A DNA stretch of 64,000 bases from an uncultured Pseudomonadota bacterium. Its GTDB lineage: Bacteria > Myxococcota_A > Polyangia > Fen-1088. The notes under the pieces are model-generated. The model searched no databases, was not told where the DNA came from, and was given only the letters and a program-made list of their open reading frames with translations. Numbering within the stretch: position 1 is the first letter of the stretch; the number at the start of each line of letters is the position of its first letter. The position numbers and the translations under genes were made by a program. The DNA is taken from contig CAVZEF010000002.1 in assembly GCA_963774325.1 (NCBI GenBank), positions 108 to 64,107 of the forward strand. Direction: 5' to 3'. Below, piece by piece: positions 14,353 through 47,162 of the stretch.

Positions 14353-14396
14353 GCCGCCAACGACCCACCGAAAAGAAGGGGTAGGCAGGGAATCGC

Positions 14397-15068: not shown

Positions 15069-15078
15069 GGAAATCGCG

Positions 15079-29787: not shown

Positions 29788-31666
29788 CTAGATTGCCTGC
29801 CGGAGCCCCGTCCTCGCCTGCCATCGCATGATCTCCCCGCGCTGCACGGTGCGCAGCACGGTCTCGGTGAACGAATTGATCGAGACGTACTTCGCGAAGA
29901 AGCGCTCCAGCACCGCCCCCAGCAAGAAGACGCCGCTGCCCTCGAACGCCGACTCGTCGCAGGTGAGCGAGATCTCCAGGCCGCGGCCGAACGTCGTCGG
30001 CCCCGGCACCGGCAGCGCGCGCGTGATTCCCGACGAACCCGTCTCGCGCACGCCCTCGATCTGCTTGCGCGTGTTCGAATCGTTGAGGTCGCAGTAGAGC
30101 GACAGCAGCTCGCGCAGCGCTCCCGCCTTCTCGCCCGCGCCCGCGTTGGCGTCGACCAGCGACAGGTAGTTGAGCGACAGGTGGCTGATGAGCCGCCAGC
30201 TGGCGTCGGCGTCGGCGTACGACGCGCGCGGCGTCGTCGGTCCGGCCAGGCAACGCGCCGACTCGACCGGCGCGCCCGACTCCAGCGTGAAGTCGGTGTG
30301 CGCCTGGCCCACCGGCAGGTGCAGCGGCAGGTCGCGGTTGGTGCACAGGGTCTCGATCGCGAGCTGGCGCAGGCTCGAACGGTACGGCCCCTCGTTGGGA
30401 TCGACCAGCGCCATGAAGACCTCGCTGCCGACGTAGCTCGACCGCGTTCCACTCTGGCGCTGCCGCGCCGACAGCATGCGCGGCTGTCGCTGCAGCGTGT
30501 AGTACGCCGGCGCTTCCTCGACGGTGGTCTGGTCGTTCCAGGCGAAGAACGGGTGAAACGTCTGCTTCAGCTCCGAGCTCGAGCCGTAGCCGACGACCTC
30601 TTTCACCGTGTGGACCTCGAAGTCCATCGGCCGCGTGCGGTCGGGCACGATGTGATACTCGGTCTCCGCCTCGTTCAGGTGGATGCGGTCGGCGCGGCGC
30701 GGGAACAGGTTGATCGCGGGCGCGCAGAACATCGCGAAGTTCTCCGGGCTGACCGCGCCGTCGAGCCCGCGGTCGTGCGCGTCGGTGAGGAGCACGATCT
30801 CGATCTCGTTGGCGTTGCACCGGCGAACCGCGTCGGCCAGACCCTTGAGGCGCACGAAAAGGAAGCGCGACGGGAACGCGAAGTATTCCTGAAGCAGGCG
30901 GTAGCCCTGGAACGAGCGCGGGCCATAGGGCAGCAGCGCCTCTTCGTCGGCGAAGCCGACGCTCTCGATCGGGTTCTCGGTGACCACGTGCTGCCACGGC
31001 GCGGGCCGCGTCGTCGGGCGCGCCACGATCGCCACCGCGTGCGCCATGATCTGCTCGTAGATCTTCATCGGCAGCTCGTCGGCGCCGCGGATGAAGAGCG
31101 GCAGATCGTCGAGCGCCAGGTCCGAGAAATTGAGCCCCGCCGTGGTGCGCAGCTTGAACCGGATCGCGCCGCGCGCCCGCGCGGACAGCTTCACCTCGCC
31201 GATGTCGCCGACGTAGCCGGTGTACTCGGCGTGGGTCAGCTCCAGCGGCCACAGCGTCACGTCCTGCGACGTCCGGTACTCGCACGGCGTCTGCTCGCCG
31301 CGCCCGAGCAGGCTGCGCAGCGCCGTGCCGCGCGGCACCCGGTAGCCCTTGCGCCAGCGTGCCCTCGGCCAGGTTCGGCCGCATCTGCACCACCGCCATC
31401 GACGGCGTCGGCGCCAGGTAGTGCGGGTAGACGATCTCGAGCAGGTGCTGCGTGAAGCGCGGGAACTCCGAGTCGATGCGCAGGTGCACGCGCGCCGACA
31501 GAAAGGCGAACCCCTCGAGCAGGCGCTCGACGTAAGGGTCAGAGCACTCGAAGGTGTCGAGGCCGAGCCGACCCGCGATCTTGGGGAAGTCGCGCGCGAA
31601 CTCCGCGCCCAGCTCGCGCACGTACTGGAGCTCGCGACCGTAGTAGCGAAGAAGCCGAGGATCCAT
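29788..31666 (-). pseudogene. tssF: T6SS baseplate protein TssF, one frame change near 31340
   Basis: MDPRLLRYYGRELQYVRELGAEFARDFPKIAGRLG... is in the frame of ORF 29105..32032. The gene then continues in ORF 29788..31338. The span is 1879 nt (3n+1). The ATG overlaps the tssE stop by 1 nt (TAATG). Confidence 0.88.
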
Positions 31667-32178
31667 TAACCGCGCTGACCGTCGACTTCCGACACCTTCA
31701 CGCCGCCGTTCTCGAGATCGATCTCCGTTCGCAGGAACAGGCGCAGCGGCAACGGCTGCGCCCAAAGCTCGGCCTCGATGTCGAACCACATGGCGTTGGG
31801 ATCCATCTTCTTCTCGTCGACCACCAGCTTGACCTTGACCGAGCTCTTGATGAGCCGCGGCTCGAAGTCCCAGATCACATTGGACAGCAGCCGTTCCATG
31901 GCGCGCACGTCGACGCTGGAAGCGGTGTGGCCGGCCAGATCCGGCATGCCGTAGTTCAGCACCGAGCGGGCGACCTGCGGGTGGTCGTCGAGGTCCTCGA
32001 CGGCCGCCAGGTTGGTGGTGTTGAGCAGCCACGTCAGGTCACGCCGCACGCATTCGCGCAGCCGCGACGGCGAGATCACGTGCTTGTCGCGCGACTCGCG
32101 CCGCTCGGCCGGACTGTCGTCGGTCAGCCGATCCAGCAACGAAGGCTGTAACCGCTCCTTCTGGGTCAGCTCGGCCAT
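31666..32178 (-). CDS. tssE: T6SS baseplate protein TssE (gp25-like)
   Basis: ATG 32178 lies inside ORF 31666..32589. MAELTQKERLQPSLLDRLTDD...VRRDLTWLLNT...SVLNYGMPDL is typical of TssE. It is intact at 170 aa. Confidence 0.85.
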   Translation of the reverse strand: MAELTQKERLQPSLLDRLTDDSPAERRESRDKHVISPSRLRECVRRDLTWLLNTTNLAAVEDLDDHPQVARSVLNYGMPDLAGHTASSVDVRAMERLLSNVIWDFEPRLIKSSVKVKLVVDEKKMDPNAMWFDIEAELWAQPLPLRLFLRTEIDLENGGVKVSEVDGQRG

Positions 32179-32183
32179 GAAAC

Positions 32184-33014
32184 CTAGGCCTCGGGCGCGG
32201 GCTCGGCGGCGGGTTCCCCGTCGTTGGTCGAGTCGAGCCGGATCTGACGGACGTCCATCAGCGCATGCTCGGTCTCGTTGGTGGCCAGCAACCGCTGGCC
32301 GAGCCCGACGAACGTGCCCCCCGGCGTCTCGCTCCACTCGGTGCCTCGCGCCATCACCAGCGCCGGGTTCGACGACTTCTCCGATCCCGGATAGCGCGTC
32401 GGGATCAGGCCGACGGTCTCGCCGCCGTTGGCCAGCGTCAGGAACGCCGGCGTCCAGGCGACGTCGCGCAGGTCGGCCGGCTTTTCCATCCGCACCTCGC
32501 TCAGGCGCCCGAACGGAATCCAGTAGTAGCGACCGTTGACGATCGCCTCCAGCATCGGACCGATTCGCTGGTCGGCGTCGCTGATCCACTCGAACGGCTT
32601 GTCATCGATGGCGCCCGACGTCGTGGGCGCGCCTTCCAGCGCCTGCTCGCGCAGCTTCGCCGCCTCTTCGAATTTCTGTTCGCCGGACAGGCGCAACGCC
32701 TCGACCAGCAGCGCCATCCACTCCGCGGGCTTCCCGAAGAGCAGCGGCCGCTGCTTGCCCGCGAAGACCTCGGCGCGCAGCATCTCGCAGCGGAGAACTT
32801 CCTTGTAGGTCGCCATCATCGTGGCGGCGTTGGCATCCATGTCGCCAGCGACCTTGAGCTGGGTCAGCGCCCGGTCCCACTGTCCCATGACCGACAGGAG
32901 CTGGAACAAGAAGATCCGCAGCTTGGGATCCGCCGGCTGCTTGCGCACCTGCGCCTGAAGCTCCGCCAGAGCCTCATCGAGACGCCCCGCGCGCACGCTC
33001 TCTTCAGCGGTCAT
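32184..33014 (-). CDS. tagJ: T6SS accessory protein TagJ (ImpE family)
   Basis: Intact 276-aa ORF. It has an N-terminal TPR-like helical domain and an ImpE-like C-terminal domain (NGRYYWIPF...LSEV...P.DLRDVAW.PA). Confidence 0.75.
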   Translation of the reverse strand: MTAEESVRAGRLDEALAELQAQVRKQPADPKLRIFLFQLLSVMGQWDRALTQLKVAGDMDANAATMMATYKEVLRCEMLRAEVFAGKQRPLLFGKPAEWMALLVEALRLSGEQKFEEAAKLREQALEGAPTTSGAIDDKPFEWISDADQRIGPMLEAIVNGRYYWIPFGRLSEVRMEKPADLRDVAWTPAFLTLANGGETVGLIPTRYPGSEKSSNPALVMARGTEWSETPGGTFVGLGQRLLATNETEHALMDVRQIRLDSTNDGEPAAEPAPEA

Positions 33015-33119
33015 GGCACCCTTTCGTGACGATGGAAGTACCGCGTCCGCCCCGGCGGTCGGACGCGATACTCCTCGTGGCCTGGAGACTGGAGAGGTTC
33101 CCCCCTTCCCAGCGTCCTT

Positions 33120-33613
33120 TTACAGCTTCTTGCCGGCGACGATGTCCCAACCCGACTGGATCGTCGCGTCGGGCGTCCCGTCGGATTTCATCGGGGTGTA
33201 GGCCGTCTGCACCGCGCCGAAGTTCAGCGTGATCGTCTCGGTGTGCGTATCACTGCCGCCCGAGCCGCCGATGGAGTACGACGAAACCAGCACGTCCTTC
33301 AGAATGATCTTCAGGTACTGAACCGCCTTCTTGCCGTTGCCGGCCGACTTCTCGCAGATCAGCGTCGCAGTCGGATACGACGTGCCCGCGCAGCACGGCT
33401 CCGATGTGGTTCGGCGTCGCGGTGTCGACCAGCTTGGTGAAGGTCAGGTCCTGAACATTCACCTTGCCGGCGGTCGAGACCGCTGATGCCGCGGGTCGAG
33501 CCCGACTGAGTCGCGCCCCAGCTCCACGACATGAGCTCGATTTCGCCAGCGTGACCATCCACCTTCGATTCGCCCTTGATGTCGCCCAGTTTCAAAAACA
33601 TATCGCCGGACAT
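33120..33613 (-). pseudogene. hcp: T6SS tube protein Hcp (TssD), two +1 frame changes
   Basis: MSGDMFLKLGDIKGESKVDGHAGEIELMSWSWGATQSGS (ORF 33359..33613) is followed by TAGKVNVQDLTFTKLVDTATPN (ORF 33250..33558). A third frame then reads ...KAVQYLKIILKDVLVSSYSIGGSGGSDTHTETITLNFGAVQTAYTPM...GWDIVAGKKL*. The span is 494 nt, and 494 minus 2 equals 3 x 164. An AGGAG RBS lies 8 nt upstream of the ATG. Confidence 0.88.
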
Positions 33614-33746
33614 GAACGCTCTCCTTGTTTGATGTGACTGCCAGATCCCCAGCCCAATCCGAGGACGGTGCTGCTACTTTTCAGCTGCTTCGAAACAACC
33701 AGTCTGACGATGTCGTCGCGAATCCGACGCGAATCAGCCCGGCAAA

Positions 33747-35241
33747 TCAGCCGGCCTTGGCCGACGGCAGCTTCGAGGTGAGCCGCAGCGAGACGGTCAA
33801 CCCCTCGAGCTGGTAGTGCGGCCGCAGGAAGAACTTCGACGTGTAGTAGCCGGGGTTGCCCTCGACCTCTTCGACGACGACCTCGGCGCGCCGCGAGCGG
33901 CATGCGCGCCTTGGTCTCTTCGCTCGAGTGCTGCGGATCGCCGTCGACGTACTGCATGATCCAGGTCGAGCAGCCAGCTCTGCACCTCTTCGCGCTCCTT
34001 GAAGGATCCGATCTTGTCGCGAACGATGCACTTCAGGTAGTGCGCGAAGCGGCAGGTCGCGAACAGGTACGGCAGGCGCGCCGCCAGGTTCGCGTTCGCG
34101 GTCGCGTCCGGATCGTCGTAGACGCTCGGCTTCTGCAGCGACTGCGCGCCGATGAAGGCGGCGAAGTCGGAGTTCTTCTTGTGGATGAGCGGCATGAAGC
34201 CGTTCTTGGCCAGCTCCGCCTCGCGGCGATCGCTGATCGCGATCTCCGTCGGGCACTTCATGTCGACGCCGCCGTCGTCGGTCGGGAAGGCGTGCGTCGG
34301 CAGCCCCTCGACCGCGCCGCCGGCCTCGATGCCGCGGATGCGCGAGCACCAACCGTACATCTTGAACGACCGGTTGATGTTGGTCGCCATCGCGTAGGCG
34401 GCGTTGGCCCACGCGTACTTGTTGCTGTCGGCGCCCGCGGTGTCCTCCTCGAAGTCGAAGGCCTCGACCGGGTTGGTCTTCGCGCCGTAGGGCGCGCGCG
34501 CCAGGAAGCGCGGCATGGCCAGGCCGAGGTAGCGCGCGTCGTCCGACTCACGCAGCGATCGCCAGCCCGCGTACTCGGGCGTGGTGAAGATCTTGGTGAG
34601 ATCGCGCGGATTCGACAGCTCCTGCCACGACTCCATCTGCATCAGCGTCGGCGACGTGCCCGCGATGAACGGCGCGTGAATCGCCGCCGCGATCTTCGAC
34701 ATCTCACCGAGCAGCTCGACGTCGGGCGCGCTGTGATCGAAGTAGTAGTCGCCGACCAGGCAGCCGTAAGGCTCGCCGCCGAGCTGGCCGAACTCTTCCT
34801 CGTAGAGCCGCTTGAAGATCGGGCTCTGATCCCAGGCCGCGCCCTTGAACTTGCGCAGCGTCTTGTGCAGCTCCTTCTTCGAGATGTTCATCACGCGGAT
34901 CTTCAGCATCTCGTCGGTCTCGGTGTTGTTGACGAGATAGTGCAGGCCGCGCCACGCGCTCTCGAGCTGCTGGAAGTCCTTGTGGTGGATGATCGCGTTG
35001 ATCTGCTCGCTCATCTTCTTGTCGATCTGCGCGATCATCGCGTTGATCGACTCGACGACGTCCGAGCCGATGACGGTGGTCTTCTCCAGCGCCTGCTGCG
35101 CCATGGTCCGGACCGCCGCCTCGACCTCGTCGCGGGCGCGATCGGTCTGCGGCTTGAACTGCTTCGTTCAGCAGCGACGCGAACTCACTGGTTTCAGCGG
35201 TCGTCCGTCGCGGCTTCTTTGGTTTGCTGTGTCTCGGCCAT
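33747..35241 (-). pseudogene. tssC: T6SS sheath large subunit TssC, four +1 frame changes
   Basis: ATG 35241 sits 1 nt after the tssB stop. MAETQQTKEAATDD / AETSEFASLLN / KQFKPQTDRARDEVEAAVRTMAQQALEK... runs into ORF 33797..35104. It then continues as IMQYVDGDPQHSSEETKARMPLAA (ORF 33592..33957) and RRAEVVVEEVEGNPGYYTSKFFLRPHYQLEGLTVSLRL (ORF 33747..34412). The span is 1495 nt, and 1495 minus 4 equals 3 x 497. Confidence 0.9.
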
Positions 35242-35242
35242 G

Positions 35243-35776
35243 TTACTTGTCCTTATCGGCCGAGCCTTCGGCCGGTTGCGCGTCATCAGCCGGTTTCGGT
35301 GCCGAAGCCAAGGTCTTCAGCAATGTCGGGTCGCGCAGTACGTTTCCGATCAGCTCCTCGGCCCCGGTCTTACCGTCCATGTAGGTGACCAGGTTCGACA
35401 GCTGCTGACGCGCCTCGAGAAGCTCGCGAAGCGGAGCCACCTTTCGAGCGATCGCAGCCGGGGAGAAGTCATCCATGTTGTCAAACGTGATGTCGACGGA
35501 CATATTCCCCTGCCCGGTCAGCGTATTCGGCACCTGGAACGCGGCGCGCGGCTTGATGCCCTTCATGCGCTCGTCGAAGTTGTCGACCGAGATCTCGAGG
35601 AACTTACGGTCGGCCACGGCGGGCAGCGGCTCCTTCGGGTTGCCCGACAAATCCGACATGACCCCCATGACGAACGGGAGCTGCACCTTCTTCTGGGCGC
35701 CGTAGAGCTCGACGTCGTATTCGATCTGGACGCGTGGCGCCCGATTCCGTGCGATGAACTTTTGACTGCTGCCCAT
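35243..35776 (-). CDS. tssB: T6SS sheath small subunit TssB
   Basis: Intact 177-aa ORF. PRVQIEYDVELYGAQKKVQLPFVMGVMSDLSG...FLEISVDNFDERM is the canonical TssB/VipA pattern. An AGGAGAG RBS lies upstream. Confidence 0.92.
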   Translation of the reverse strand: MGSSQKFIARNRAPRVQIEYDVELYGAQKKVQLPFVMGVMSDLSGNPKEPLPAVADRKFLEISVDNFDERMKGIKPRAAFQVPNTLTGQGNMSVDITFDNMDDFSPAAIARKVAPLRELLEARQQLSNLVTYMDGKTGAEELIGNVLRDPTLLKTLASAPKPADDAQPAEGSADKDK

Positions 35777-35859
35777 GTGATCTCTCCTGTTGAGAAAAAC
35801 GCTGAAGCGCTACCTGAGTTCCCCTAGCCGCGCCACTTCCCCCCGCCTTCATGCTTGCG

Positions 35860-36897
35860 TCAACCTTCGCTTTGACCGCGCAGCATGTCGACCTTGGAGA
35901 GGCCTTCCGGCACCAGCTCCTTGATCAGGTCGACGAAGCTCATCATGACGAGCTTCTTGCTGCGCTCCATGAACATGGGAATCGGGCTCGATGGCTCGTT
36001 TCTGGCGTAATAGGCGCAGATGGCGTCGAGCGCCCGGATGACGTCCTCGCGCGAGCTGATGGCGCCGCCGAAGGCGCGCGCGGGCGCGGCGCCGTTGCTG
36101 CCGTTCTGCGCCACCGCTCCGTCGGCGGCGGGCGCGTCGGCGCTGGTGGCGGTGCGCTGCGCCAGCTTGCCGGCGACGTAGTTGTCGGCCCTGCGCAGCA
36201 GCGCCGGCAGCTTGCCGAAGCTCGCCGCTGCCGAAGCGTCGACGCGCGACGCGATCGCCTCCTCGAGCCCCTTCAGCGACTCGACGCAGGCGTGCAGTGC
36301 CTTGGCGGTCTCGTCGAGCCCGGCGAGGTCGACCTCCATCGCCGCGCCGTCGATCGTCGCCATCGTCGCCGGCGACGGCGCGCCGTCAGCGGCCGCGGGC
36401 GGGGGCACGTCGCCGCCGGCGATCTCGAGATCGCGCAGCGAAAAGCGACCGAGCGCACGCGACGAGATGATCGGAGTCGCGCGCACCGCGGCCAGCATCG
36501 GCGTATCCGAGAAGCTGGAGAAGACGTTCACGCGCATCGTCGGGTCGTTGTCGTCGGAGGGATCGAGGCGTGGGTGCACGCCGTCCCAGTAGCGTTCGAC
36601 GAGGCCGCGCAGCAGGCCGAGCCCCGTCGCCAGCCCCGACCAGCCGTTGTTGCGCAAGAGCGCGCGCGTCAGATGGCCCGCGACGCGCAAGTCCTTGCTA
36701 CGCGCGAGGAACTCGGTGGTCTTTTTCTGGAGAGTCTTCCAGTCCGGCTCCTCGGCGGGGACGATGGTGGTCCCGATCTGCTGCTCAGGTTTACCCTGGG
36801 ACAGCCGATCGATCTCCGAGAACGAAGCGTCGTACTCCAGATCGACCCCGCACTGGTCATCGGGGCTCACGGGGGCTAGTAGGGTTTCGAGATCCAT
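35860..36897 (-). CDS. tssA: T6SS protein TssA (ImpA N-terminal domain)
   Basis: Intact 345-aa ORF. LLAPVSPDDQCGVDLEYDASFSEI...EPDW is the ImpA_N signature. The C-terminal EPSSPIPMFMERSKKL is typical of short TssA proteins. Confidence 0.85.
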   Translation of the reverse strand: MDLETLLAPVSPDDQCGVDLEYDASFSEIDRLSQGKPEQQIGTTIVPAEEPDWKTLQKKTTEFLARSKDLRVAGHLTRALLRNNGWSGLATGLGLLRGLVERYWDGVHPRLDPSDDNDPTMRVNVFSSFSDTPMLAAVRATPIISSRALGRFSLRDLEIAGGDVPPPAAADGAPSPATMATIDGAAMEVDLAGLDETAKALHACVESLKGLEEAIASRVDASAAASFGKLPALLRRADNYVAGKLAQRTATSADAPAADGAVAQNGSNGAAPARAFGGAISSREDVIRALDAICAYYARNEPSSPIPMFMERSKKLVMMSFVDLIKELVPEGLSKVDMLRGQSEG

Positions 36898-36927
36898 GGT
36901 GGTCGCAGCTCTGCTAGTAAATCGTGC

Positions 36928-36958
36928 ATATTAGCCTTTACCTTCCGCCGGTTGTCAA
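36928..36958 (-). promoter_or_regulatory. candidate sigma70-type promoter of the tssA operon
   Basis: The - strand reads TTGACA (36958-36953), 19 nt, then TAATAT (36933-36928). Alternatively TTGACA-17 nt-GCTAAT. The -10 ends 30 nt upstream of the tssA ATG and lies in an AT-rich patch that stands out from the GC-rich background. Confidence 0.35.
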
Positions 36959-36975
36959 TCAGGTTGCGCTTCGCC

Positions 36976-37034
36976 ATGCGCTCCGCGGTGCGCTCCGTGG
37001 TGCGCTCCGTGGTGCGCTCCGTGCCCGCTCCGGA
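36976..37034. repeat. 12-bp direct tandem repeat array (gtgcgctccgtg x3 perfect plus flanking degenerate copies) in the tssA/tagH divergent intergenic region
   Basis: The units are 36976 atgcgctccgcg, then gtgcgctccgtg at 36988, 37000 and 37012. A fifth CGCTCCG core lies at 37026-37032. A CGGTTGTCA motif flanks the array on both sides (36949-36957 and 37048-37056). Confidence 0.85.
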
Positions 37035-37100
37035 TCTGCGCGCGCGGCGGTTGTCACGATCGGCTATGATGACGGCCTCCGTCCTGCAGGGCGCTGACTG

Positions 37101-38259
37101 ATGATTCTCGAGGTTCAGATAACCGACCCCAAGACCGGCTCGAGCCGGAAGATGCGTTTCTCCCACTCGCCGGTCCGCATCGGGCGCAACCAGCTGAACG
37201 ATCTGTCGCTCGACACGCCGTTCGTCTCGGAGTGGCACGGGACGATCCGCTTCGACAATCGCAGCGTCGCGTACTTCGACCTCGGCTCGACCAACGGGTC
37301 GAATGCTCGACGGGAAACGCCTGACCAAGAACGTCGCCGTGGAGCTGACGGAGGCGTCGCGCCTACAAGTGGGTGGCCTCGAGCTGTCGGTCTCGGTGCA
37401 ACAGGCGGACAGCGGGCTCGGCAAGACGCTGGGATGGGGCCGGCCCGACGATCGCCCCTCGCAACCGGCGCCGGCACCGGCGGTGATCCGCTCGCCCGAT
37501 CGTCCGAAGTCCGGTGGGCCGGGCTCGGCGTCGCCGTTCGCGAGCTATCACCCCGACGTCAGCAGCCCGGGGCTGCGGCCGTCGCCTGTCGGGGATGCCT
37601 CACGCGACGCCACCGCACGGGCCGGGCCCGTCGCCGGCGGGCCACGCGGGCGCGCGCGGATCGATGCATGGCCCCTCGCCGGGCGCCGGTCGCGTCGGCG
37701 CCCGGTGTCGGTCCATCGCCGGCGGCCTGCGCGCAGGCTCGGCCGACCTGGTCGCGCGCCAGCGCCAGCTGCTGGAGGCGTTCGCCGAGTCGTTCGTCGG
37801 CCTGCGCAAGGGCTACGAGCAGTTCGGCGCCGAGGTCGGCGTTCGCACGATCCACGGCAAGTCGGCGCTGCATCGGGCGCGCACCGCCGTCCGAGATCCT
37901 CGACTACCTGCTGCAGCCCAACCTGGATCCGGCGGCCGCGGCGCGCGAGCTCATCGCCGTGTTCGCCGACCTGGGCATCCACCACATCGCGATGATGGAG
38001 GCGATCACCGAGGGCGTGCGCTGCGGTGCTGCAGTCGCTCGATCCGCGCGCCAACGAGCTGGACATCGGCGCGGGCGGGATCCTGTCGCGCGGCAAGACC
38101 AAGGCGCAGTGGAAGAGTTACCTGGAGCGGTTCGATCAGCTGGTCACCGACGACGACGAGCTGCACACGGCGATCTTCAGCGACGACTTCGCGCGCGCCT
38201 ACGCCAGCGTCACGCTGGGCGAAGAGGGCGTGCGCCGGAAAAAAGAGGACAAGAAATGA
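37101..38259 (+). pseudogene. tagH: T6SS-associated FHA-domain protein (TagH/Fha-like), four +1 frame changes
   Basis: The N-terminal FHA domain reads MRFSHSPVRIGRNQLNDLSLDTPFVSEWHGTIRFDNRSVAYFDLGSTNGS / MLDGKRLTKNVAVELTEASRLQVGGLEL. A Pro-rich linker follows, then the C-terminal region LVARQRQLLEAFAESFVGLRKGYEQFG..., ILDYLLQPNLD...IAMMEAITEGV and MLQSLDP...WKSYLERFDQL. The frames run 37101, 37303, 37514, 37101, 38026. The span is 1159 nt, and 1159 minus 4 equals 3 x 385. Confidence 0.8.
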
Positions 38260-39228
38260 ACCTTGCCGCGCGCGCCGGCCGCGCCTCTGCGCGCAGGCCG
38301 GCCCTGGGGATCTGTCTCGCCGCCGCGCTCGCCGTCACCGGCGTCGTCCCGGGGTCGCGGATGCCAGCCGCGCGCGCGCCCGATGGTGGCGGGCCCGGCG
38401 CGCCCGTGCACGGTCGCCACGACCATCGGCGCCGACAAGCCGATGCGCGACCGCGTCTTCCCGTCGCAGTACTGGTTCGCGCTGCTGCTGCAGGGCTATC
38501 AGATGACCGGCGAGCTGGCGCGACCGGCGCTGAGCTGCAGCGGCACACCGATCAATCTCGAAGGCGACGGCTGCCCCGGTGAGACGTCGGCCGTGCGGGT
38601 CAACCCGGGCGCGATCGTTTCGAACCGCGACGTGACGGTGGTCAACATCACCGACTCGCGGCGGCTGGTGTGGGCAGTGACCGATCGCTACGCCGACGGC
38701 CAGGGCGAAGGCCCGGTCGCGCTCGTCGACATCGAGCCGCAGGGGCTGGCGGTGCGCGCGAGCGGCGTGCTGCGCGCCTATCCCGAGAACCCGTCGCTGC
38801 GACTCGCGCGCCTCGGGACCGGAACGGTGCTGGTGGCGGACGGCGAGTACTGCTCGAAGCCGGCGTCCTGCGAGCGCGCGACGCGCATCATGCCGCTGGT
38901 CGGCGACCACTTCGTCAACAAGCCGCTGGTCGACGACAAGGCCGCGTGCCTGGGCCCGGCGTTTTTCCCGATGCACCAGGCCGGCGTCGCCCACGGGCGC
39001 AAGCGCGCGAAGTACGACATCTCGGTGTCGATCACCTACGGCCCCGACAACATCTCGGTCCGCGAGCAGCTGGGGCTGAGCGGCGCGGAGCCGGCATCAG
39101 ACACGGGAACGGGATCCTTCGTGACGCGCGTGCAGTCGGAGCGGCAGGTGACGTTGAAGGACGGGAGCCTGGTGGCGACGGCGCCGTCGATCCTGGCGCG
39201 CTGGCTGGCGCAGCAGCAGCAGCTCTAG
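38256..39228 (+). pseudogene. hypothetical exported Cys-containing protein translationally coupled to tagH; one frame change near 38405
   Basis: ATG 38256 overlaps the tagH stop (ATGA). A signal-like N-terminus (RRPALGICLAAALAVTGVVPG) is in the frame of ORF 37101. The rest is in ORF 38263..39228 (...YWFALLLQGYQMTGELARPALSCSG...CPGE...). The span is 973 nt (3n+1). No family recognised. Confidence 0.5.
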
Positions 39229-41160
39229 TTCCTCTGGCGGGCGACTCGGCGGCCGTCGTGCGGCCTCGGCCGGAGCTGGGCTCGCTCGACAGGTTGCCGG
39301 CGCTCGCCGACTTGAAGATGAAGAGGCCGTCGCCGATGCCGATGGTCTCGCCGTCGGTGAGCGGGCAGCGCTTGTCGACCGCGGAGCCCTCGACGGTGAC
39401 CGGACCGCCGAGCGGCGCGATCGCGAACTCGCCGCCGTCGAGCGTGATCTCGGCGTGCTCGGCGGCGACGGTGTGATCCTGCGACAGGCGGATCTGAGCA
39501 ACTCCCCGACGAGACCGATGACCGTGCGCTGCGTCGCCGAGCCGCAGCGTCTCGCCGCGCCGGCCGGCGCCGCCCGCGCGCACCAGCCAGCCGACGACGA
39601 TGCCCAGCGCGCCGACGCGCGTGCGCAGCGTGTCCTGGATCGCGACCACGGCGCCGCGCGCGCGCGGCGTGCCCAGCGCCGGGTGCGACGACGCGGCGGC
39701 GCGCAGCGCCTCGGCCAGGCGATCCAGGCCCAGGCTGGTGAACGCGGTGCACTCGTCGGCGCCCACGCGCGCCGCCACCGTGGCCGCCGCCTGATCCGGC
39801 GGCGTGCGGTTGCTGACCGCATCGGCCAGCACCGCCGCCAGCGCGTCGTCGAGCATCGGGCTGTCGACGGACTTCTTCGCGAGCAGGTCGCGGATCTCCT
39901 GCATGCGCAGCCGGCCGGGGCGCGTGCGGAAGTACGGGAAGCGCGGATCGGAGAAGACCTCCTGATCCAGGTTCGCGAGCTCGCCGATCGACTCCGGGAT
40001 AGTTGCGCGTCAGCTCGTCGACCGCTCGCCGGGGCGAGGCGCCGCGCCGGATGAGATCGTGCGCCGCCTGCAGGATCTCGTCGTCGCCGCCGCCGCCGCT
40101 CGCCGGTCGCCGGCGCATGAAGACGATCACCCGCCGGCCAGCAGCGCCAGCACGCCGACGCCGCCGAGCAGCAGCGAGCGCAGCTTGCCGGGGCCGATCG
40201 AGACCGCGCCCATGTCGGCGCCGAGCCGCTGCCCGCCACCGACGTTGAGCCGTGACGGACAGGTGGTGCGAGCCGCCCAGCAGGTGCCAGCCGAACGGCG
40301 TCGCCACGCGGACACGCAGCAGGTCGGCGATGCCCTGCCCCAGCGACTCGAGCGCGTTCTCGAGATCCTGCGGCTGGTCGAGCATGCGCAGCACGCCGCC
40401 CGCGGCGTCGTGGAAGTCGCTGAGGTTCGACGTCGCCTGCGCGCGATCGGCGTCGGGCGCCGGGAACGCCACCACCAGCGGCGTGACCCCCGCCTTGCGG
40501 ATCTCGCGCCCGAGCGCCGCGAAGTCGCCCGGCCCCTCCCCCTTGGGATCGGCGAAGTCGCGCCCGTCGGTGACCACGACCAGGATGCGCAACGGCGCCG
40601 GGTCGGCCGCCAGGTCGGCGAGATCCAGCCGCACCGCTTCGATCAGGTTGGGGCGGTTGCCGTCGATGTACGGCACGTCGCCGAGGCGGCTGACGTCGGC
40701 GGCGGTCAGGCGCGCGCGGCCCTGGCGCATGCGCCCGTAGACGGTCGGGATAGACCACGGTCCGCGAGGGCACGCGCTGGAAGAACGCCTGGATACCGTC
40801 GAGCACGCCGGGCGGGATGTGCTCGATCCAGAGGTAGACCAGGCCGACCGACACCGGCGGCTTCCAGGTCTTGTTGCCCTCGGCGGCCGTCGTCGACCAG
40901 TCGGACAGCGACTGGGTCACCGGCGGCGCGTCCGACTTCTGCCCGTCGATGGTCAGCTCCAGGCTGGTCGGCTTCAGCGAACGGCCGGCGTCGTTGAAGC
41001 CGCCCACGAAGAACGTCAGCTCGTCGGTCTCGGCGTCCACGACCGGCCGCGTGGTGATCAGCGCCGGCCCGACGGCCGCCGCCGTGCCCGGCAACATCGG
41101 GAGCACGAGCGCGAGCGCCGTGGCGATCGCAGCGGGGGTTCGCCGTCGGCTGATGGTCAT
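39225..41160 (-). pseudogene. signal peptide - vWA-like periplasmic domain - TM - cytoplasmic FHA domain protein; many frame changes; 3' end uncertain
   Basis: The parts are a signal peptide (MTISRRRTPAAIATALALVLPMLPGTAAA) and a vWA-like half (LRILVVVTDGRDFADPKGEG...GVTPLVVAFP). A TM helix LLLGGVGVLALLAGGVIVFM is followed by RRR. A C-terminal FHA domain follows (AEHAEITLDGGEFAIAPLGGPVTVEGSAVDKRCPLTDGETIGIGDGLFIFKSA). I could not see a MIDAS DxSxS motif. ATG 41160 overlaps the upstream stop (ATGA). Confidence 0.65.
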
Positions 41161-41946
41161 GGGGTTCGAACGCCGACCGGAGGAAGCCACAGCGACTTGA
41201 ACAGCAGCTCGGTGGTCCCGACCTTGATGATGTCACCGTCGGCCAGCCGGACGATCTCGCCCTTGACCAGCTTGTGCGAGTTGACGAAGGTGCCGTTCGC
41301 CGACGGCCCGGGCCGATCGCGGTCGCGGATCGTGAACGCATCGGTGCGCTCGCCGGTCATGCGGGCGGCTCAGCACGGCGTGCCCGCTCGACATGAAGCC
41401 GTCGTCGAAGGCGACCAGCTTGGCGGAGCCGATCGGCGGCGCGTCGGCGCGCGACAGCACGGCGTCGGCGTCGAGCTCGACGAGCGTCCCCTTCTTCGAC
41501 TCGTCGCCGGTGCGAATGACGATCAGCCAGCCCAGCGTCATGCCGCGCCGCCGCGTGCGATGCCGGCAGCTCGACCTGCCCGGGCGCGAAGAACATGGTC
41601 TTGGCGCCGACCAGGTTGGGCCGGCACTTGCCGCAGGTGGTGCCCCAGCCGGCCAGCATCGGCTCGCCGCAGTTGGGGCACGGGATCTCCGCGGGCGCCG
41701 ATTCCTCCGGCGGCTCCAGCGGCTCGAAGGCCCCGCTTGGCCCGCGCGAGCGTGCGCCGGCTCCCGTCCCGAGCCCGGGGTCGGACAGCGGGCTGCGCGG
41801 GCGCGCCGGCCTCCGCGGGGGCCCGCCCGACGAGACGCTGGCCCGCGGCGACCGCGCGGCGGCGTCGGCGACTCCGGCTGCTGGGGCGGCTGATTGCCGA
41901 GAAGATTTTTCAGCTTATCGAACACGCGGTTAGCGATGGTCATCAT
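41157..41946 (-). pseudogene. zinc-ribbon plus FHA domain protein, three frame changes
   Basis: The N-terminus MMTIANRVFDKLKNLLG is followed by a Pro/Arg-rich linker. The zinc ribbon is EIPCPNCGEPMLAGWGTTCGKCRPN (CxxC...CxxC). The FHA domain reads LGWLIVIRTGDESKKGTLVELD...SSGHAVLS...IRDRDRPGPSANGTFVNSHKL...LADGDIIKVGTTELLFK. Frame changes lie near 41800, 41560 and 41365. Confidence 0.7.
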
Positions 41947-42106
41947 AGGTTCGCGATCGGAGAGGGTCAAACAAGGATCGCGTGACGCCCCTTCCGCATC
42001 GCGCCCCGGCCGGCGAACCCCATCCGGCGCCGGTCACGTCGTATGAAGGAAGTGGCCTCAGGATCTTTCCCAGTTGGCCGGCCGGCCGCTAACATCACGG
42101 CCTTCG

Positions 42107-44169
42107 ATGGCCAGCCGAAGATTCGCGCTCACGACCCACCCGACGCTCGCCGCCGCGTTCGCCGTGGCCGTCGCGGGCGGCGGCATCGCCGCGGTCGTCG
42201 ACGCTGCCGACCCGGCCGGCGCCGGCAGCCGAATCAGCGGGCGCGCAGTCCACCGCCATCATCGTCGCGGGCCAGCCGTTCGACGTCGGGCGCACGGTCG
42301 TGCTGTGGAAGGATCCGCAAGGGTTCGACGCCTACCAGGTCCGCTGCATCGACCAGCACGGCGGCTGCTGCGACACCGACTCCAAGCGCTACGGCTCGCG
42401 CAAGCTGGAACACGACTCTGTCGAGGACATGCAACAGCAGGTCTCGCAGCTGGTGCTGCACTTCGACGGCTGCGTGAACTCGCGCTCTTGCTTCAAGTCG
42501 ATGCACAACCGCACGCGCCCCAGCGGCGCCGGCTGCGGGCTGTCGGCGCACTTCATGATCGACGCCGACGGCACGATCTACCAGACGCTGGATCTGGTCG
42601 AGCGCGCGTTCCACGCCGAGGAGGCCAACGCCACCTCGATCGGCGTCGAGATCTGCAACCGCGGCAAGGTCGACCGCAGCGAGTGGCCCAAGCTGCCCGC
42701 CGAGTACCGCACGCGCCCCACGCGCGACGTGGTCATCAACGGCGAGCACCACGAGGCCTACGACTTCCGCCCCGAGCAGTACGATTCGCTGGTCGCGCTC
42801 GCGCGCACGCTGCTGCGCGTGTTCCCCAAGATCAAGCCGGTGATCCCGGAGCGCAACGGCCAGGTCATCATGGACACGCTGCCGGATCCGATGAGCTTCG
42901 CCGGCATCCTCGGCCACCTGCACGTCGATCTGCAGAGGCAAAAGTGGGATCCGGGCGCGCTCGACTGGCACCGGCTGATGCGCGCGCTCAACGGCTTCGA
43001 GCTGCCGGTGCAGATCCGATCCTTCACCGATCTGCCGCGCACGCAGCAGGATCTGGTGTCGGCGCGGCGCGCGGCGTTCTACAACGCCGAGGAGCGCGCC
43101 ACCGGGTTCTTCCCGGTCGCGCCCGGGCGCCTGTGGCACTCGGGCGTGCACATCCGCGCGGCGCTCGGGTCGAGCGTGCACGCGCCGACGCGCGGCCGCA
43201 TCATCGCCGCGCGCAACGCGACCGCGGGCGCGTCGTCGCGCTCGTTCGTGCTGATCCGCCACGACCTCGACGTCGACGACGAGCCGGTGACGTTCTACTC
43301 GCTGATCGCCCACATCGCGCTGCCGTCGGTGGGCTCGTACGAGGCCAACACCATCCCCTGGCTGCAGTCGGTCGCGCACGGTCCGGTGGCGATCCGGGCG
43401 GCGCTCGAGGCCGGCGAGGTCGTGAACATCGACGAGCGCGTCGAGGCCGGCGACGTCATCGGCCACGTCGGCACCGTGAGCCGCGGCCCCGAGCAGGGCC
43501 CCGAGATCCACTTCGAGATCTTCACCACCGAGCGTCTGGGCGGCGACTTCGGCCGCGCGTTCCACTACATCAACGCCGCCGGCGACGGGCCGATCACCCG
43601 GCGCGCCGACCTCATCAACATGGCCGACCGCAACGGCGACCAGGAGCTGTCGGCCGACGAGCTGCGCCAGTTCTTCCGCTCGGGCGACCTCGACAAGCGC
43701 CAGGCGCTTGCGCCGCGTGGTCGTGCGCCACCGCCACGAGTGGGGCGACCGCACCACCGAAGCCGAGTTCGTCGAGCCTGCGCGAGCTGGCCGGCATCCC
43801 GGAAGCCGAGCGCAGGCGCCTGTACGAGATCGCCATCGCGCCCTACATCTTCTGGACCGACGAGCTGTCGCGCGTCACCGGCCTGCCCGCCAACCAGACC
43901 ATCTACTCGTACAACGCGCTGACGTTCCTGCTGGAGCTGGCGTCGCGCGCCGCGCGCGTCGAGCTGCCCAAGACGCGCGGCCGCTGCGGTCGGCGAGAGC
44001 GGCGTCGAGCCGCGCAAGCTCGCCTCCGTGCCGGTGACCGACTGGACCGAGCCCAAGGCGACGCCCGGTCGAGGCCCCGCTGTTCGGCCCCCTCATCGGC
44101 GTGCGCCTCGGCCCGCGCCGCCGCGACGACATCCCGCTCATCGAGCTCGCGCCGACCGACAACCGGTGA
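42107..44169 (+). pseudogene. multidomain peptidoglycan hydrolase: signal peptide, Amidase_2 (MurNAc-L-Ala amidase/PGRP fold), variant M23/LytM domain, EF-hand-like loop, unknown C-terminal domain; five +1 frame changes
   Basis: The signal-like N-terminus is MASRRFALTTHPTLAAAFAVAVAGGGIAAV. Amidase_2 motifs are QLVLHFDG, SAHFMIDADGTIYQTLDLVERAFHA, NATSIGVEICN and ILGHLHVDLQRQKWDPG. M23-like motifs are WHSGVHIRAALGSSVHAPTRGRI, GDVIGHVGT and GPEIHFEIF. The EF-hand-like loop is DRNGDQELSADE. The frames run 42074, 42300, 43708, 42074, then two more to TGA 44167-44169. The span is 2063 nt, and 2063 minus 5 equals 3 x 686. Confidence 0.75.
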
Positions 44170-44245: not shown

Positions 44246-45413
44246 GTGGTCACGCGGCTCTGGATAGGGGTGTGTTCGCGAGCGCGCTGGGCGTTGCTGG
44301 CACTGGTTGCGGGCTGCTTTTCGAGCGCCCCGACCACCACCCTGTCGGCCAACAGCGACCCATACGGACTCTGTCCTCCGATCGATGCCGGCATGACCGG
44401 GAGCGGTGCCGGCAACGGCGAGACGCCGCCTTCCTGCGATGCGCCACCGCCGGCAAGCCCGCTCTCCGGCTGGGCCACCGTGTCCGGCATGGGCAACGGC
44501 ACGGTGTCGGTCGATACGACGACCGGCGGCGACCCCGCGGTGCCGATCAGCGTGACCACGCTGGCCGACCTCAACACCGCGCTCGCGGGCACGACGCCGG
44601 CGGTCGTGCAGATCGTCGGCATGACGATCAGCGGCAACGTGCGCGTCGGCTCGAACAAGACGCTGGTCGGCGTCTGCGGCGGCGTGGTTCAGGGCAACAT
44701 CAAGATCTCGGGCTCGTACAACGTCATCGTCCGCAACCTCAAGATCGTCGGCTACAACTGCAAGGATCCCGCCGCGGTCAACGCCAAGGACTGCTCGGCG
44801 GGCGCCGACGCGGTCACGATCAGCAACTCGCACCACGTCTGGTTCGATCACGACGACATCTCCGACGGCTCCGACGGCAACCTGGACATCAACCTGGCCT
44901 CCGACTTCATCACGCTGTCGTGGACCAAGTTCTATTACTCCGGGTCGCGCGTCGACCCGGCGGGCGCCGCCGGCGGACACGAGTTCTCGGACCTGATCGG
45001 CAGCTCCGACAACTCGACGACGGATGCGGGCCACCTGCGCGTGACCTGGCACCACGACTGGTGGGGCGCCAACGTGCACGAGCGCGAGCCGCGCGTGCGG
45101 TTCGGCGAGATTCACCTCTACAACAACCTGTGGACGTCGGTCAGCAACTCGTACTGCGTCGGCCTCGGCGTCGGCGCGAGCATCCTGGCCGAGAACAACG
45201 TCTTCCGCGGCGTGAACATTCCGTTCAACATCACCTCCTACGCCGACACCACCAGCGTGCTCGAGCCGCGCGCCAACCTGCTTCGAGGGGGTCACCGGCA
45301 ACACGGACGGCGTCGGCGGCGCGGCCTTCACGCCGCCCTACGACTACACCGTCGAAGAACCCTGCACCGCCGTCGCCGAGATCCTCACGCAGGCGGGACC
45401 GCAGTACGCGGGC
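44246..45413 (+). pseudogene. pectate lyase (PL1 family) lipoprotein; frame change near 45280; true stop not identifiable
   Basis: The lipobox is LALVAGC. PL1 motifs are HVWFDHDDISDGSDGNLDI, LRVTWHHDWW and REPRVRFGEIHLYNN (ORF 44246..45652). The natural C-terminus FEGVTGNTDGVGGAAFTPPYDYTVEEPCTAVAEILTQAGPQY reads in the third frame from 45282, which has no nearby stop. The end coordinate is approximate. Confidence 0.75.
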
Positions 45414-47162
45414 TCAGAATCCGCCTTGCGGATCGACGTGCGGCGCGGGGTCGGCGTCGGCGAGACCGCCCGCATCTTTCTCGTCGCGGATCTGCGTCAC
45501 CAGGCGGCGCAGCTGCTCCTGGTACATCGCCACCGCCGGCGCGAGCGCGACCGCGCGCTCCCAGTAGAGCACGGCGTCCAGCGGACGGCGCTCCGAGACC
45601 AGCGACAGGCCGCGATCGAAGCAGGCGGCGGCGACCGCCTCGTCCTCGCTGAGGTTGTGCGTCGGCGGCGACTGCGGCAGCGCCGATTCGGGCGGCGCGC
45701 CGCGCACCCACGCGGCGACCGGATTGACGCCCGCGCGGCGCACGACCGAGAACGGATCCGACAGCGCCGCCGGCGTAGGCACCCGCGTACCAGGCGCGGG
45801 CACCCGCGTACCAGGCGTGGGCAACCGCGCCGCAGGCGTCGGCAACCGCGCCGCAGGCGTCGGCAACCGCGCCGCAGGCGTGGGGATGAACGGCGGGCGG
45901 GGCGGGGCCGCGGCGACCGGCGGCTGCGCGGTCGGGCCGCCGGGAACGCGCGGCACAACCGGGGGCGTCGCCTGCTGCTGCAGCACCGAGAGGTCGTCGA
46001 GGCTGATCGCCGGCTTCACCGCCGTGGGCGTCGGACGCGGCGTGCGGCGGGCGGCGGCGCGCGCATCAACCTGCGGGTCCGCCGGCGGCGCGAGCACCGG
46101 GGGCGCCGCCGGTCGCGCAACCGCGGGTGCTGCGACCGAGGGCAAAATGCGCAGGCGCGCCGCCTGTCCCTCGGGCGTAGCCGGCATCTCGTGCACCGCC
46201 GCGCCCGCCTTGCGCAGGTGCTCGAGCACGTCGCCCTCGTCGGCGGCGTAGGGGTCGTTGCCGAGGTCGCTGGCCAGGAGTTGTAGAAGCTCGTCGGCCA
46301 GCCGATCCGCCCACCCGTAACGCTTGCGCAGGTCGGCGGCCATCGCGCGCCGCACGACGCGCGCGACCGACATCGGCACGTTGACCTTGGTGGTGATGTC
46401 GGGCGCCTGGCCGTCGATGATCTTCTTCACCATGTCCTGGCCGTCGAACGGGCTGATGCCGGCCAGGTACTCGTAGAGCATGATGCCGACCGAGTAGAGA
46501 TCGCTCCGCGCGTCGCCGACGTTTCCGCGCAACCGCTCGGGGCTCAGGTAGCGCAGCTTGCCGACCACCGAGCTCGACGGCGGCGGCGTGTTCGTGGTCG
46601 CCGCCGCGCCGAAGTCGATCAGCTTGGTCGCGCCCGCGTACGAGATCATGACGTTCTCGGGGCTGACGTCGCGATGGACGAATCCGACCGGTACGCCGTT
46701 TTCAGTCAGCGCGTGACCGTATGACAGCGCACGAACGACATCGAGCATGGCGCGCAGGAAAAAATTTCGCGGCAGCCGGCGCTGTTTGAGACGAAACGAT
46801 CGCCCGAGCTGGCGCAACGACCGCCCCGGCACGTACTCCATCGCGATGAAGTAGCGCCCCTCGTACTGGCCGAAATCGAAGACCTGGACCATGCCAGGAT
46901 GGTTCATGCGCGCGGCGATCTCCGCCTCGTTGATGAACATGCGCACCAGATCCGGCGTGTCGGCGAGCTCGGGCCTCATCGTCTTGATGACGATGTCCTT
47001 CTGAAAGCTCTCGACGCCGAGAACGCGGGCGCGCCAGACCTCCGCCATACCACCGGCGGACAGTCGGCCGAGTATCTCGTACCGACTGAAGTGCGATCCA
47101 GCTTTCCAAGCAAAGTGCCCGAGTGGCATCCGTCCCCCTGGTGGACGCTCTCCGCGATCCAA
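45414..47162 (-). CDS. Ser/Thr protein kinase with a Pro-rich repeat linker and a TPR-like C-terminus
   Basis: Intact 582-aa ORF. The kinase motifs are LSAGGMAEVWRA, IVIKTM, HRDVSPENV, DFGAA and LRYLSPE. The linker has PTPAARL x3 and PxPGTRV x2 repeats. The C-terminus (VLYWERAVALAP) looks TPR-like. Confidence 0.8.
   Translation of the reverse strand: MDRGERPPGGRMPLGHFAWKAGSHFSRYEILGRLSAGGMAEVWRARVLGVESFQKDIVIKTMRPELADTPDLVRMFINEAEIAARMNHPGMVQVFDFGQYEGRYFIAMEYVPGRSLRQLGRSFRLKQRRLPRNFFLRAMLDVVRALSYGHALTENGVPVGFVHRDVSPENVMISYAGATKLIDFGAAATTNTPPPSSSVVGKLRYLSPERLRGNVGDARSDLYSVGIMLYEYLAGISPFDGQDMVKKIIDGQAPDITTKVNVPMSVARVVRRAMAADLRKRYGWADRLADELLQLLASDLGNDPYAADEGDVLEHLRKAGAAVHEMPATPEGQAARLRILPSVAAPAVARPAAPPVLAPPADPQVDARAAARRTPRPTPTAVKPAISLDDLSVLQQQATPPVVPRVPGGPTAQPPVAAAPPRPPFIPTPAARLPTPAARLPTPAARLPTPGTRVPAPGTRVPTPAALSDPFSVVRRAGVNPVAAWVRGAPPESALPQSPPTHNLSEDEAVAAACFDRGLSLVSERRPLDAVLYWERAVALAPAVAMYQEQLRRLVTQIRDEKDAGGLADADPAPHVDPQGGF
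45778..45882 (-). repeat. five tandem 21-bp coding repeats within the kinase linker
   Basis: The + strand units are ggcacccgcgtaccaggcg(cg/tg) at 45778 and 45799, and ggcaaccgcgccgcaggcgt(c/c/g) at 45820, 45841 and 45862. They are in frame (7 aa each). Confidence 0.85.

Follow-up and report, generated by a model that had tools for sequence, protein, structure and literature searches.

A candidate periplasmic peptidoglycan hydrolase with an altered M23 metal site, paired with FHA genes at type VI secretion loci of uncultured Polyangia

How a type VI secretion system (T6SS) passes through the cell wall of its own producer is understood in a few proteobacteria only, through the enzymes TagX and MltE. 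The same question is raised by a gene on a 64,000-nt stretch of contig CAVZEF010000002.1 (assembly GCA_963774325.1), from an uncultured bacterium placed in the Polyangia; this whole stretch is called the window below. The gene (42107..44169, + strand) lies at the border of a set of T6SS genes, and its product, here called the hydrolase, joins an Amidase_2 domain to an altered domain of the M23/LytM fold. What is such an enzyme doing beside a secretion apparatus? The answer that we prefer, with a probability of about 0.45, is that it is a periplasmic peptidoglycan-remodelling accessory of the T6SS, tied to signalling through FHA proteins. This answer draws on the integrity of the gene, the domains and conserved residues of the protein, its signal peptide and its synteny. 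From these we infer enzymatic activity, Ca2+ binding, physical coupling to a VWA-FHA protein and a role in T6SS assembly.

The first step is to ask whether the window encodes a working protein at all, as the frame of the gene shifts five times, which would fit a pseudogene killed by frameshifts. The G+C content of the window is ~70%, and across 42.1-44.2 kb the third-position G+C of at least 0.9 hops between frames. Correspondingly, in tblastn the matches of P0001 (684 aa), the best intact relative, follow one another across the interval in the frame order 2, 0, 1, 2, 0, 1, with five frame changes. Nucleotide alignment against the intact gene on locus L006, which is 93% identical to the window gene and served as the reference for indel calls, places single-base insertions at 42200, 43708, 43775, 43986 and 44062. 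When these are deleted, the gene runs from an ATG at 42107 to a stop at 44167-44169, exactly the two ends given in the original prediction, which was made from the DNA alone. The frameshift-corrected translation, which that prediction had proposed as a check, is a protein of 685 aa whose alignment to P0001 covers both chains completely and contains few substitutions and a single 1-residue gap; the inferred frame keeps the third-position G+C of at least 0.9 and contains no other stop. All five insertions are private to the window gene. Neighbouring genes are also split by frame (Hcp into 2 frames, TssC 3, Fha 2, unk624 3 and FHA260 3), two loci from long-read metagenome-assembled genomes (MAGs; L001 and L010) have their own, different private indels in the hydrolase gene, and in the two short-read loci compared (L006 and L007) its frame is intact throughout. 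Because the indels are private and the neighbouring genes are broken too, the frameshifts look like assembly noise and not like decay specific to this gene. The pseudogene reading was dropped on these grounds as very improbable; the gene is probably intact in vivo, and its frameshifts are probably long-read assembly errors. Private indels also mark contigs of related MFD long-read MAGs. More generally, single-base indels spread over 33141-41970 and 42107-44169 make an annotation based on open reading frames under-call the genes of the window.

The corrected protein bears out the domain content proposed earlier, namely a signal peptide, an Amidase_2 domain, an M23-like domain and an EF-hand-like loop, as judged by Pfam, conservation and a structure model; all motifs quoted at that time were located in the gene when their coordinates were checked. 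In Pfam, the window protein matches Amidase_2 with E 2.6e-20 (73.5 bits; cut-off 26; P0001, 74.5 bits) and Peptidase_M23 with E 3.3e-10 (40.5 bits; cut-off 28.7). Conservation was read from an alignment of 114 sequences, composed of 38 members of the window's clade and 76 proteins of a sister group at 30-35% identity. An earlier AlphaFold2 run with the 38 close sequences was poor, with a predicted local distance difference test score (pLDDT) of 62; on all 114 sequences the mean pLDDT is 88.3 and the predicted template-modelling score (pTM) 0.84. In P0001 numbering, the model has a disordered segment (1-45), the amidase domain (~46-300), a long helix (312-329), the M23 beta-domain (~335-475) with a helical insert (410-433), a helix-loop-helix (499-524) and a compact alpha/beta domain (535-615), followed by a low-confidence tail. 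A pLDDT of 88 and a pTM of 0.84 imply, for the modelled chain, that the amidase and M23 domains are in a fixed arrangement with rigid packing.

The amidase is the more conventional half of the enzyme. Including an N-terminal beta-hairpin, it spans 42246..43010 (+), with a Pfam core at 42432-42956 of the MurNAc-L-Ala zinc amidase type. Its motifs, all on the + strand, are LHFDG (42456-42470), SAHFMIDADG (42543-42572), SIGVEICN (42636-42659), GHLHVD (42912-42929) and KWDPG (42942-42956). H118, E181, H270, K279 and D281 of the window protein correspond to H117, E180, H269, K278 and D280 of P0001, and these five residues are unchanged in 114/114 sequences. From motif position and the roles of the residues in AmpD, H117, H269 and D280 are presumably the zinc ligands, and E180 and K278 the catalytic residues. 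In Foldseek, AmpD (2y2b) is the best match of the amidase domain (E 2e-6, target TM-score 0.63-0.65), together with LysCS, peptidoglycan recognition proteins and T7 lysozyme; the best PDB match by sequence is AmpDh2. Since the full Amidase_2 catalytic set is invariant, activity is the default expectation, and the domain most likely works as a zinc MurNAc-L-alanine amidase. AmpD, AmpDh2 and AmpDh3 have the same set of catalytic residues as the hydrolase. However, AmpD is a cytoplasmic enzyme of one domain and AmpDh3 a toxin that is delivered and has an immunity protein, and all three are devoid of an M23 domain, an EF-hand and the C-terminal domain of the hydrolase.

The M23 domain (43113..43535, +) is the unusual half. 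It was recognised by Pfam, by its register against solved M23 structures and by Foldseek, and is modelled with a pLDDT of ~93-98 over most of its length. Its motifs on the + strand are WHSGVH (43134-43151), AHI (43305-43316) and EIHFEIF (43503-43523). When the family profile is aligned with the sequences of solved M23 proteins, HSGLD (2hsi) and HSGTD (6jmx) fall on H-x-G-x-H, and GPHMH and GPHLH fall on x-(E/Q)-x-H. The canonical HxxxD thus reads H-S-G-V-H in the window, with His at the Asp position in 114/114 sequences, and the canonical HxH reads E-I-H, with an invariant second His. The two substitutions had been called by eye (HxxxD to HxxxH, HxH to ExH), and this register upholds them. A search for intact canonical ligands elsewhere in the M23 domain found no second HxxxD/HxH pair, the register being fixed by the profile-to-PDB alignment, so the variant reading stands. 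At position 465, where HxH has its first His, 38/38 members of the clade have Glu, 73/76 sister-group proteins have Gln and remoter relatives have a hydrophobic residue. In contrast to this variability, H343, H347, H401 and H467 are invariant in 114/114 sequences at 30-35% identity; H401 among them is the central catalytic His, equivalent to H260 of LytM. Between this central His and the last motif lies a helical insert of ~35 residues. It appears from the sequences, then, that the metal site has been rebuilt and not lost, with three ligand positions occupied by His-His-His and one canonical catalytic His retained.

What kind of M23 domain is this? Foldseek places it among StM23, EnvC-LytM, DipM-LytM, LytM and lysostaphin, with E 5e-4 for EnvC and DipM. 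The original prediction drew a parallel with degenerate LytM domains of the EnvC/NlpD type, and from this analogy it suggested that the fused amidase could be self-activating. Four His residues invariant over 114 sequences argue against both decay and a ligand-less LytM of that type: the site is altered, but its three ligand positions are all His. EnvC, NlpD and DipM activate Amidase_3 enzymes that carry an autoinhibitory helix, and they do so from separate polypeptides. The fused amidase here is an Amidase_2 of the AmpD type, and no Amidase_3 match was found in the hydrolase by Pfam or Foldseek. The EnvC/NlpD-type interpretation was therefore ruled out, on ligand conservation and amidase family. 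As the clients of the known activators are Amidase_3 enzymes, self-activation by analogy is without precedent, and neither the ligand status nor the amidase family supports it.

The likenesses to these regulators are nevertheless real. EnvC, NlpD and DipM have the same fold as the M23 domain of the hydrolase and act alongside an amidase, and the last motif of DipM, PQLHFE, has a form also found in the sister subfamily. The differences are that their ligands are lost (in DipM, GLNIRA replaces HxGxD), whereas the ligand positions of the hydrolase are all occupied by metal binders, and that the hydrolase carries its Amidase_2 on the same chain, whereas their Amidase_3 clients are separate. With the active M23 enzymes LytM, lysostaphin, StM23, ShyA and Csd3, the hydrolase has in common the fold, the first ligand His, the last ligand His and the central His; it differs from them by His in place of the Asp ligand, by Glu in place of the first His of HxH and by the insert of ~35 residues. 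The site is intermediate between active enzymes of the lysostaphin type and LytM regulators that have lost their ligands. Judged by these residues, the chance that the domain cleaves peptide bonds is near even, and it may either cut cross-link peptides with altered chemistry or hold peptide stems. As a natural experiment, the domain combines a His3 metal site with replacement of a catalytic His by Glu or Gln, maintained over deep divergence. Separately, the longer remote relatives P0190, P0191, P0197, P0205 and P0225 (740-830 aa) have an extra, canonical-looking HIGLD near the C-terminus besides the variant HGGVH; in P0190, Pfam detects no second M23 domain.

Downstream of the M23 domain there is an EF-hand-like helix-loop-helix (43554..43713, +), whose loop DRNGDQELSADE (43626-43661, +) is of the Ca-type. 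Pfam scores are below threshold (EF-hand_6, 20.1 bits against a cut-off of 25; EF-hand_1, 18.4 against 25.4), and the element is recognised together with loop conservation and the model. Positions 1, 5 and 12 are D, D and E in 105, 110 and 113 of the 114 sequences. In the window's clade, position 1 is D in 37/38, position 3 N in 33/38, position 5 D in 38/38 and position 12 E in 38/38, with L, V or I at position 8. In the sister group, D, D and E occur at 1, 5 and 12 in 68/76, 72/76 and 75/76, position 3 is variable and Gly is frequent at 6. The model flanks the loop with helices (499-505 and 515-524), so that the EF-hand pattern is present as a whole: acidic or polar residues at 1, 3, 5 and 12, a hydrophobic one at 8, and helices on both sides. 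It is likely a Ca2+ site, Ca2+ being available in the periplasm.

The remainder of the chain has no counterpart among the matches listed. The alpha/beta C-terminal domain (43714..43975, +), in which three of the five insertions were placed, contains an HRHEWGD motif and is modelled with a pLDDT of 92-98; its H540, E543, W544, P577 and W581 are kept in both subfamilies. For the C-terminal ~150 residues there was no match in Pfam, NCBIfam or PDB sequences and none among the top 50 Foldseek matches (PDB and BFVD) listed, lists dominated by the amidase and M23 domains, in which a weak C-terminal match could be hidden. The chain ends in a probably flexible acidic tail (44089..44166, +; pLDDT ~50) with the motif IPLIEL-x-P-TD (44128-44166; P0001 673-684), of which I673, P674, L675, I676, E677, L678, T681 and D682 are invariant within the window's clade. 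This tail could be a docking peptide, perhaps for the metal ion-dependent adhesion site (MIDAS) face of a VWA domain, or an autoinhibitory ligand of the M23 metal. The sister group has a similar ending, L-x-L-[ED]-[DE]-L-x-x-G-[FY].

Where does the enzyme act? The N-terminal region (42107..42236, +; MASRRFALTTHPTLAAAFAVAVAGGGIAAVV...AAES) looks like a Sec-type signal peptide without a lipobox Cys. Signal peptides were called by a hydrophobicity scan and by eye, and nearly all clade members have a positive or short n-region, a hydrophobic stretch of 10-20 residues and often an AxA-like site. The window protein has SRRF, yet an RR pair is found in just 12/87 relatives, and because of this rarity export was assigned to the Sec type and the Tat type was ruled out. 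The hydrolase is thus predicted to sit in the periplasm of its producer. All seven Cys residues at P0001 positions 79, 86, 87, 121, 127, 142 and 182 are invariant in this exported clade, whereas in the sister group, which has no signal peptide, near-universal Cys is limited to C121 and C127, and no member has Cys at 87 or 142. This pattern is consistent with a gain of extra disulfides along with export.

The genes around the hydrolase were mapped next, and the T6SS-border position ascribed to it proved right. A first T6SS block, with TssK, TssL and TssM, lies at 13921-19500 (+), and a second, with TssF, TssE, ImpE, Hcp, TssC, TssB and TssA, at 29791-36909 (-). Fha/TagH (37896-38226, +) adjoins the second block. 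Beside the hydrolase stand two FHA genes on the opposite strand, both frameshifted in the window. FHA260 (41181..41970, -), divergent from the hydrolase, encodes a cytoplasmic protein with a Zn-ribbon and an FHA domain. unk624 (39290..41106, -) encodes a signal peptide, a VWA-like periplasmic domain, a transmembrane helix and a cytoplasmic FHA domain.

The arrangement was followed through 48 species-level loci, all from uncultured Polyangia/Myxococcales MAGs. FHA260 adjoins the hydrolase in divergent orientation in 44/45 loci, and unk624 stands beside FHA260 in 37/37; this pairing is the strongest signal at the locus, and the original prediction did not contain it. At least one T6SS gene is found within 10 kb in 24 of the 27 loci that have at least 12 kb of flank. 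Two layouts occur. In layout A, that of the window, the hydrolase unit stands at the end of the TssA-to-TssF block; in layout B, whose members are ~60-64% identical, the hydrolase is inside the cluster, flanked by the FHA pair on one side and a convergent TagF-TssM on the other. In the 136-bp divergent intergenic region no match to a sigma-54 promoter was found, and window-wide there are 35 such matches against a mean of 60 in 100 shuffles, fewer than in every shuffle.

This neighbourhood bears on a further explanation, that the hydrolase is a lysin with an antibacterial or predatory use, delivered as a T6SS effector or secreted by Sec onto prey. An Amidase_2 toxin associated with a T6SS is known in AmpDh3, for which PA0808 is the immunity protein (PMC10281587). 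VgrG lies directly downstream of the hydrolase in one locus (L003) and nearby in another (L005), and myxobacteria are predators. Phage lysins also combine M23 with Amidase_2: actinophage Lysin A, like the hydrolase, carries these two peptidoglycan-cleaving folds on one polypeptide, and the top Foldseek matches in the viral library are the lysin of Gordonia phage GMA6 (E 5e-10) and the endolysin of Arthrobacter phage Tweety19 (E 1e-9). However, the phage lysins are only 12-14% identical, superpose poorly as a whole and have neither the EF-hand, nor the C-terminal domain, nor FHA or T6SS neighbours. VgrG adjacency is limited to few loci. T6SS effectors are described as being without canonical signal sequences (PMC11582642), whereas nearly all members of the T6SS-linked clade have a signal peptide. 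Profile scans with Pfam and NCBIfam detected no PAAR, MIX or Rhs-type delivery domain in the hydrolase. No downstream gene is conserved, since those genes vary between loci, and with it no adjoining immunity candidate; the locking to FHA genes is unlike an effector-immunity pattern. Both the lack of an immunity-like gene and the signal peptide had already been raised as objections to classic effector delivery, and both hold across the clade. A weapon is therefore a distinctly improbable function for this protein.

Three sister-subfamily loci of Haliangiales/Kofleriaceae type were also examined (L055 8376-12004, L056 8415-11944 and L057 8382-11932). In all three, the sister hydrolase (30-35% identity; motif HGGVH...QxHFE) lies 2-20 nt downstream of a VWA-transmembrane-FHA gene in the same direction. 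unk624 and these sister VWA-FHA proteins are homologous over the extracytoplasmic domain and the transmembrane helix (hhalign, probability 96%, E 1.5e-9), and both have the FHA domain at the C-terminal end. None of the three loci has an FHA260 homologue, nor a T6SS gene within 10 kb. The proteins of the sister subfamily and the wider family begin at the first conserved beta-strand (e.g. MGKIWIAG...), without a signal peptide; the sister genes start 2-20 nt past the upstream stop codon, which makes an overlooked extension at the N-terminus improbable. Among the loci examined, only those of the window's clade have FHA260, the signal peptide and the link to a T6SS. Judged from these comparisons, the hydrolase and its VWA-FHA partner are probably an ancient unit, older than the T6SS link. 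Scatter independent of the T6SS, which the original prediction had named as the finding that would speak against it, is not seen in the orthologous clade and is seen in the paralogous sister subfamily. The signal-less Amidase_2/M23 protein of the sister subfamily is expected in the cytoplasm.

Another reading is that the hydrolase is an FHA-controlled wall enzyme of housekeeping or development (growth, division, sporulation or recycling), and that its place next to the T6SS is inherited gene order. The same two-gene core does occur outside a T6SS context in the sister subfamily, two loci of the clade itself (L002 and L008) have no nearby T6SS genes, and the amidase fold is nearest to AmpD, a recycling enzyme. 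On the other hand, T6SS genes remain neighbours in two different layouts across a range of 60-95% protein identity, for which inertia alone is a poor explanation, and layout B puts the gene between T6SS genes. We regard this explanation as improbable.

The same findings could also point to a trans-envelope sensor, in which the hydrolase would bind or cut peptidoglycan or its damage products and the VWA-transmembrane-FHA protein would relay this to a phospho-threonine network, thereby controlling T6SS firing in this clade and, in the sister subfamily, other targets. The VWA-FHA pairing is tighter than the T6SS link and probably older, and two FHA proteins, Fha/TagH and TagF are all nearby. A conserved His3 site with a variable "catalytic" position suits binding as much as cutting, and the conserved flexible motif at the C-terminus could be a docking peptide. 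However, the amidase catalytic residues are all invariant, which points to real substrate turnover. Moreover, the sister enzyme is signal-less while the VWA domain is predicted to lie outside the membrane, so that one common binding geometry fails. Nor is there a conserved Ser/Thr kinase partner beside the module in the loci compared, the kinase at 45414-47162 being common to the closest relatives only. A sensor is unlikely, although it is the closest rival of the preferred reading.

We return to the T6SS accessory proposed at the outset. Its mechanism would run as follows. The Sec-exported hydrolase would act on peptidoglycan in the periplasm, working as one unit with the divergent bitopic VWA-FHA protein (unk624) and the cytoplasmic Zn-ribbon-FHA protein (FHA260). 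This unit would have been recruited into the T6SS locus in this clade of Polyangia, where the hydrolase would locally open or remodel the producer's own wall for assembly of the T6SS membrane complex, and the FHA proteins would tie the place and timing of wall opening to the phospho-threonine pathway of Fha/TagH and TagF. Three roles had been put forward originally for this gene; remodelling of peptidoglycan for the T6SS is the one best supported, by the 24/27 linkage, layout B and the signal peptide, while the effector and the predatory lysin are disfavoured. Several points weigh against the accessory role all the same. The sister subfamily keeps the VWA-FHA partner without a T6SS or a signal peptide, so the original task of the module was probably something other than T6SS assembly, and the enzyme is predicted to occupy different compartments in the two subfamilies. 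It is also uncertain whether the M23 domain is catalytically competent, since the first His of HxH gives way to Glu here, to Gln in the sister group and to hydrophobic residues farther out. Finally, no T6SS gene was found in the examined flanks of L002, L008, L009 and L012, those of L009 and L012 covering only ~3 kb upstream.

Enzymes with the same proposed job are known. TagX and MltE are peptidoglycan enzymes that aid T6SS assembly, TagX being encoded in the T6SS locus (PMC13584744). Both are envelope enzymes, TagX an L,D-endopeptidase of Acinetobacter and Burkholderia and MltE a lytic transglycosylase of E. coli that is recruited by TssM. Their folds are unrelated to the present one (VanY-type in TagX and transglycosylase in MltE, against Amidase_2 plus M23 here); TagX is membrane-anchored, and both lack a link to FHA or VWA proteins. 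A T6SS tied to FHA proteins is known from the PpkA-Fha1-TagF pathway of the P. aeruginosa H1-T6SS, and Fha/TagH and TagF are also found in the Polyangia loci. PpkA, like unk624, has a VWA domain in the periplasm and a signalling domain in the cytoplasm. The present module differs in that unk624 carries FHA and not a kinase and that no conserved kinase belongs to it, while the Pseudomonas pathway has no peptidoglycan hydrolase. A 2026 review of T6SS accessory factors names neither "amidase" nor "M23" (PMC13584744), and in the literature searched neither a T6SS accessory that joins Amidase_2 to M23 nor the VWA-FHA pairing is the subject of any paper that we found. Within that literature, the strictly conserved His3/Glu M23 site, the fixed four-part architecture and the unit of three genes that the hydrolase forms inside T6SS loci with the VWA-FHA and Zn-ribbon-FHA proteins appear to be undescribed. 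Taken singly, the folds are ordinary, and wall enzymes linked to a T6SS are already known.

If the accessory role is true, the hydrolase would be a third, unrelated enzyme solution to the passage of the T6SS through the producer's wall, this time in Myxococcota, and its built-in FHA (phospho-threonine) link would make the place and timing of wall opening testable. A signal peptide in the T6SS-linked clade and none in relatives with the same VWA-FHA partner provide a clean evolutionary contrast. A broader speculation, quite unlikely as a whole, is that the hydrolase and the VWA-FHA protein form a trans-envelope device, not described before, linking the state of peptidoglycan, through Amidase_2 and the His3 M23 domain under Ca2+ control, to phospho-threonine signalling. 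In one clade of Polyangia, the addition of a signal peptide and a second FHA protein would have connected the device to the assembly or firing of the T6SS, and the His-His-His/Glu site would be a new subclass of M23.

Other genes of the window can be described briefly. The two T6SS blocks are ~10 kb apart, with unrelated genes between them, e.g. a glucosamine-6-P isomerase-like gene (19593-20357) and a TPR-methyltransferase gene (24461-25852). unk311 (38401-39204, +; 311 aa), located 3' of Fha/TagH, has no Pfam match; it is also present at L003 (6272-7207), is kept in many relatives at 38-48% identity and follows Fha/TagH in layout A, so that it may be an uncharacterised T6SS-associated gene. 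About 77 nt past the stop of the hydrolase begins a pectate-lyase-like gene (44246-45652, +), named after the homologous gene of L001. The Ser/Thr kinase gene (45414-47162, -), kept in the closest relatives only, comes next, and farther upstream in the window there is a GH28 polygalacturonase-like gene (6816-7655, -). The pectate-lyase-like and GH28 genes suggest that the organism may be capable of degrading plant polymers.

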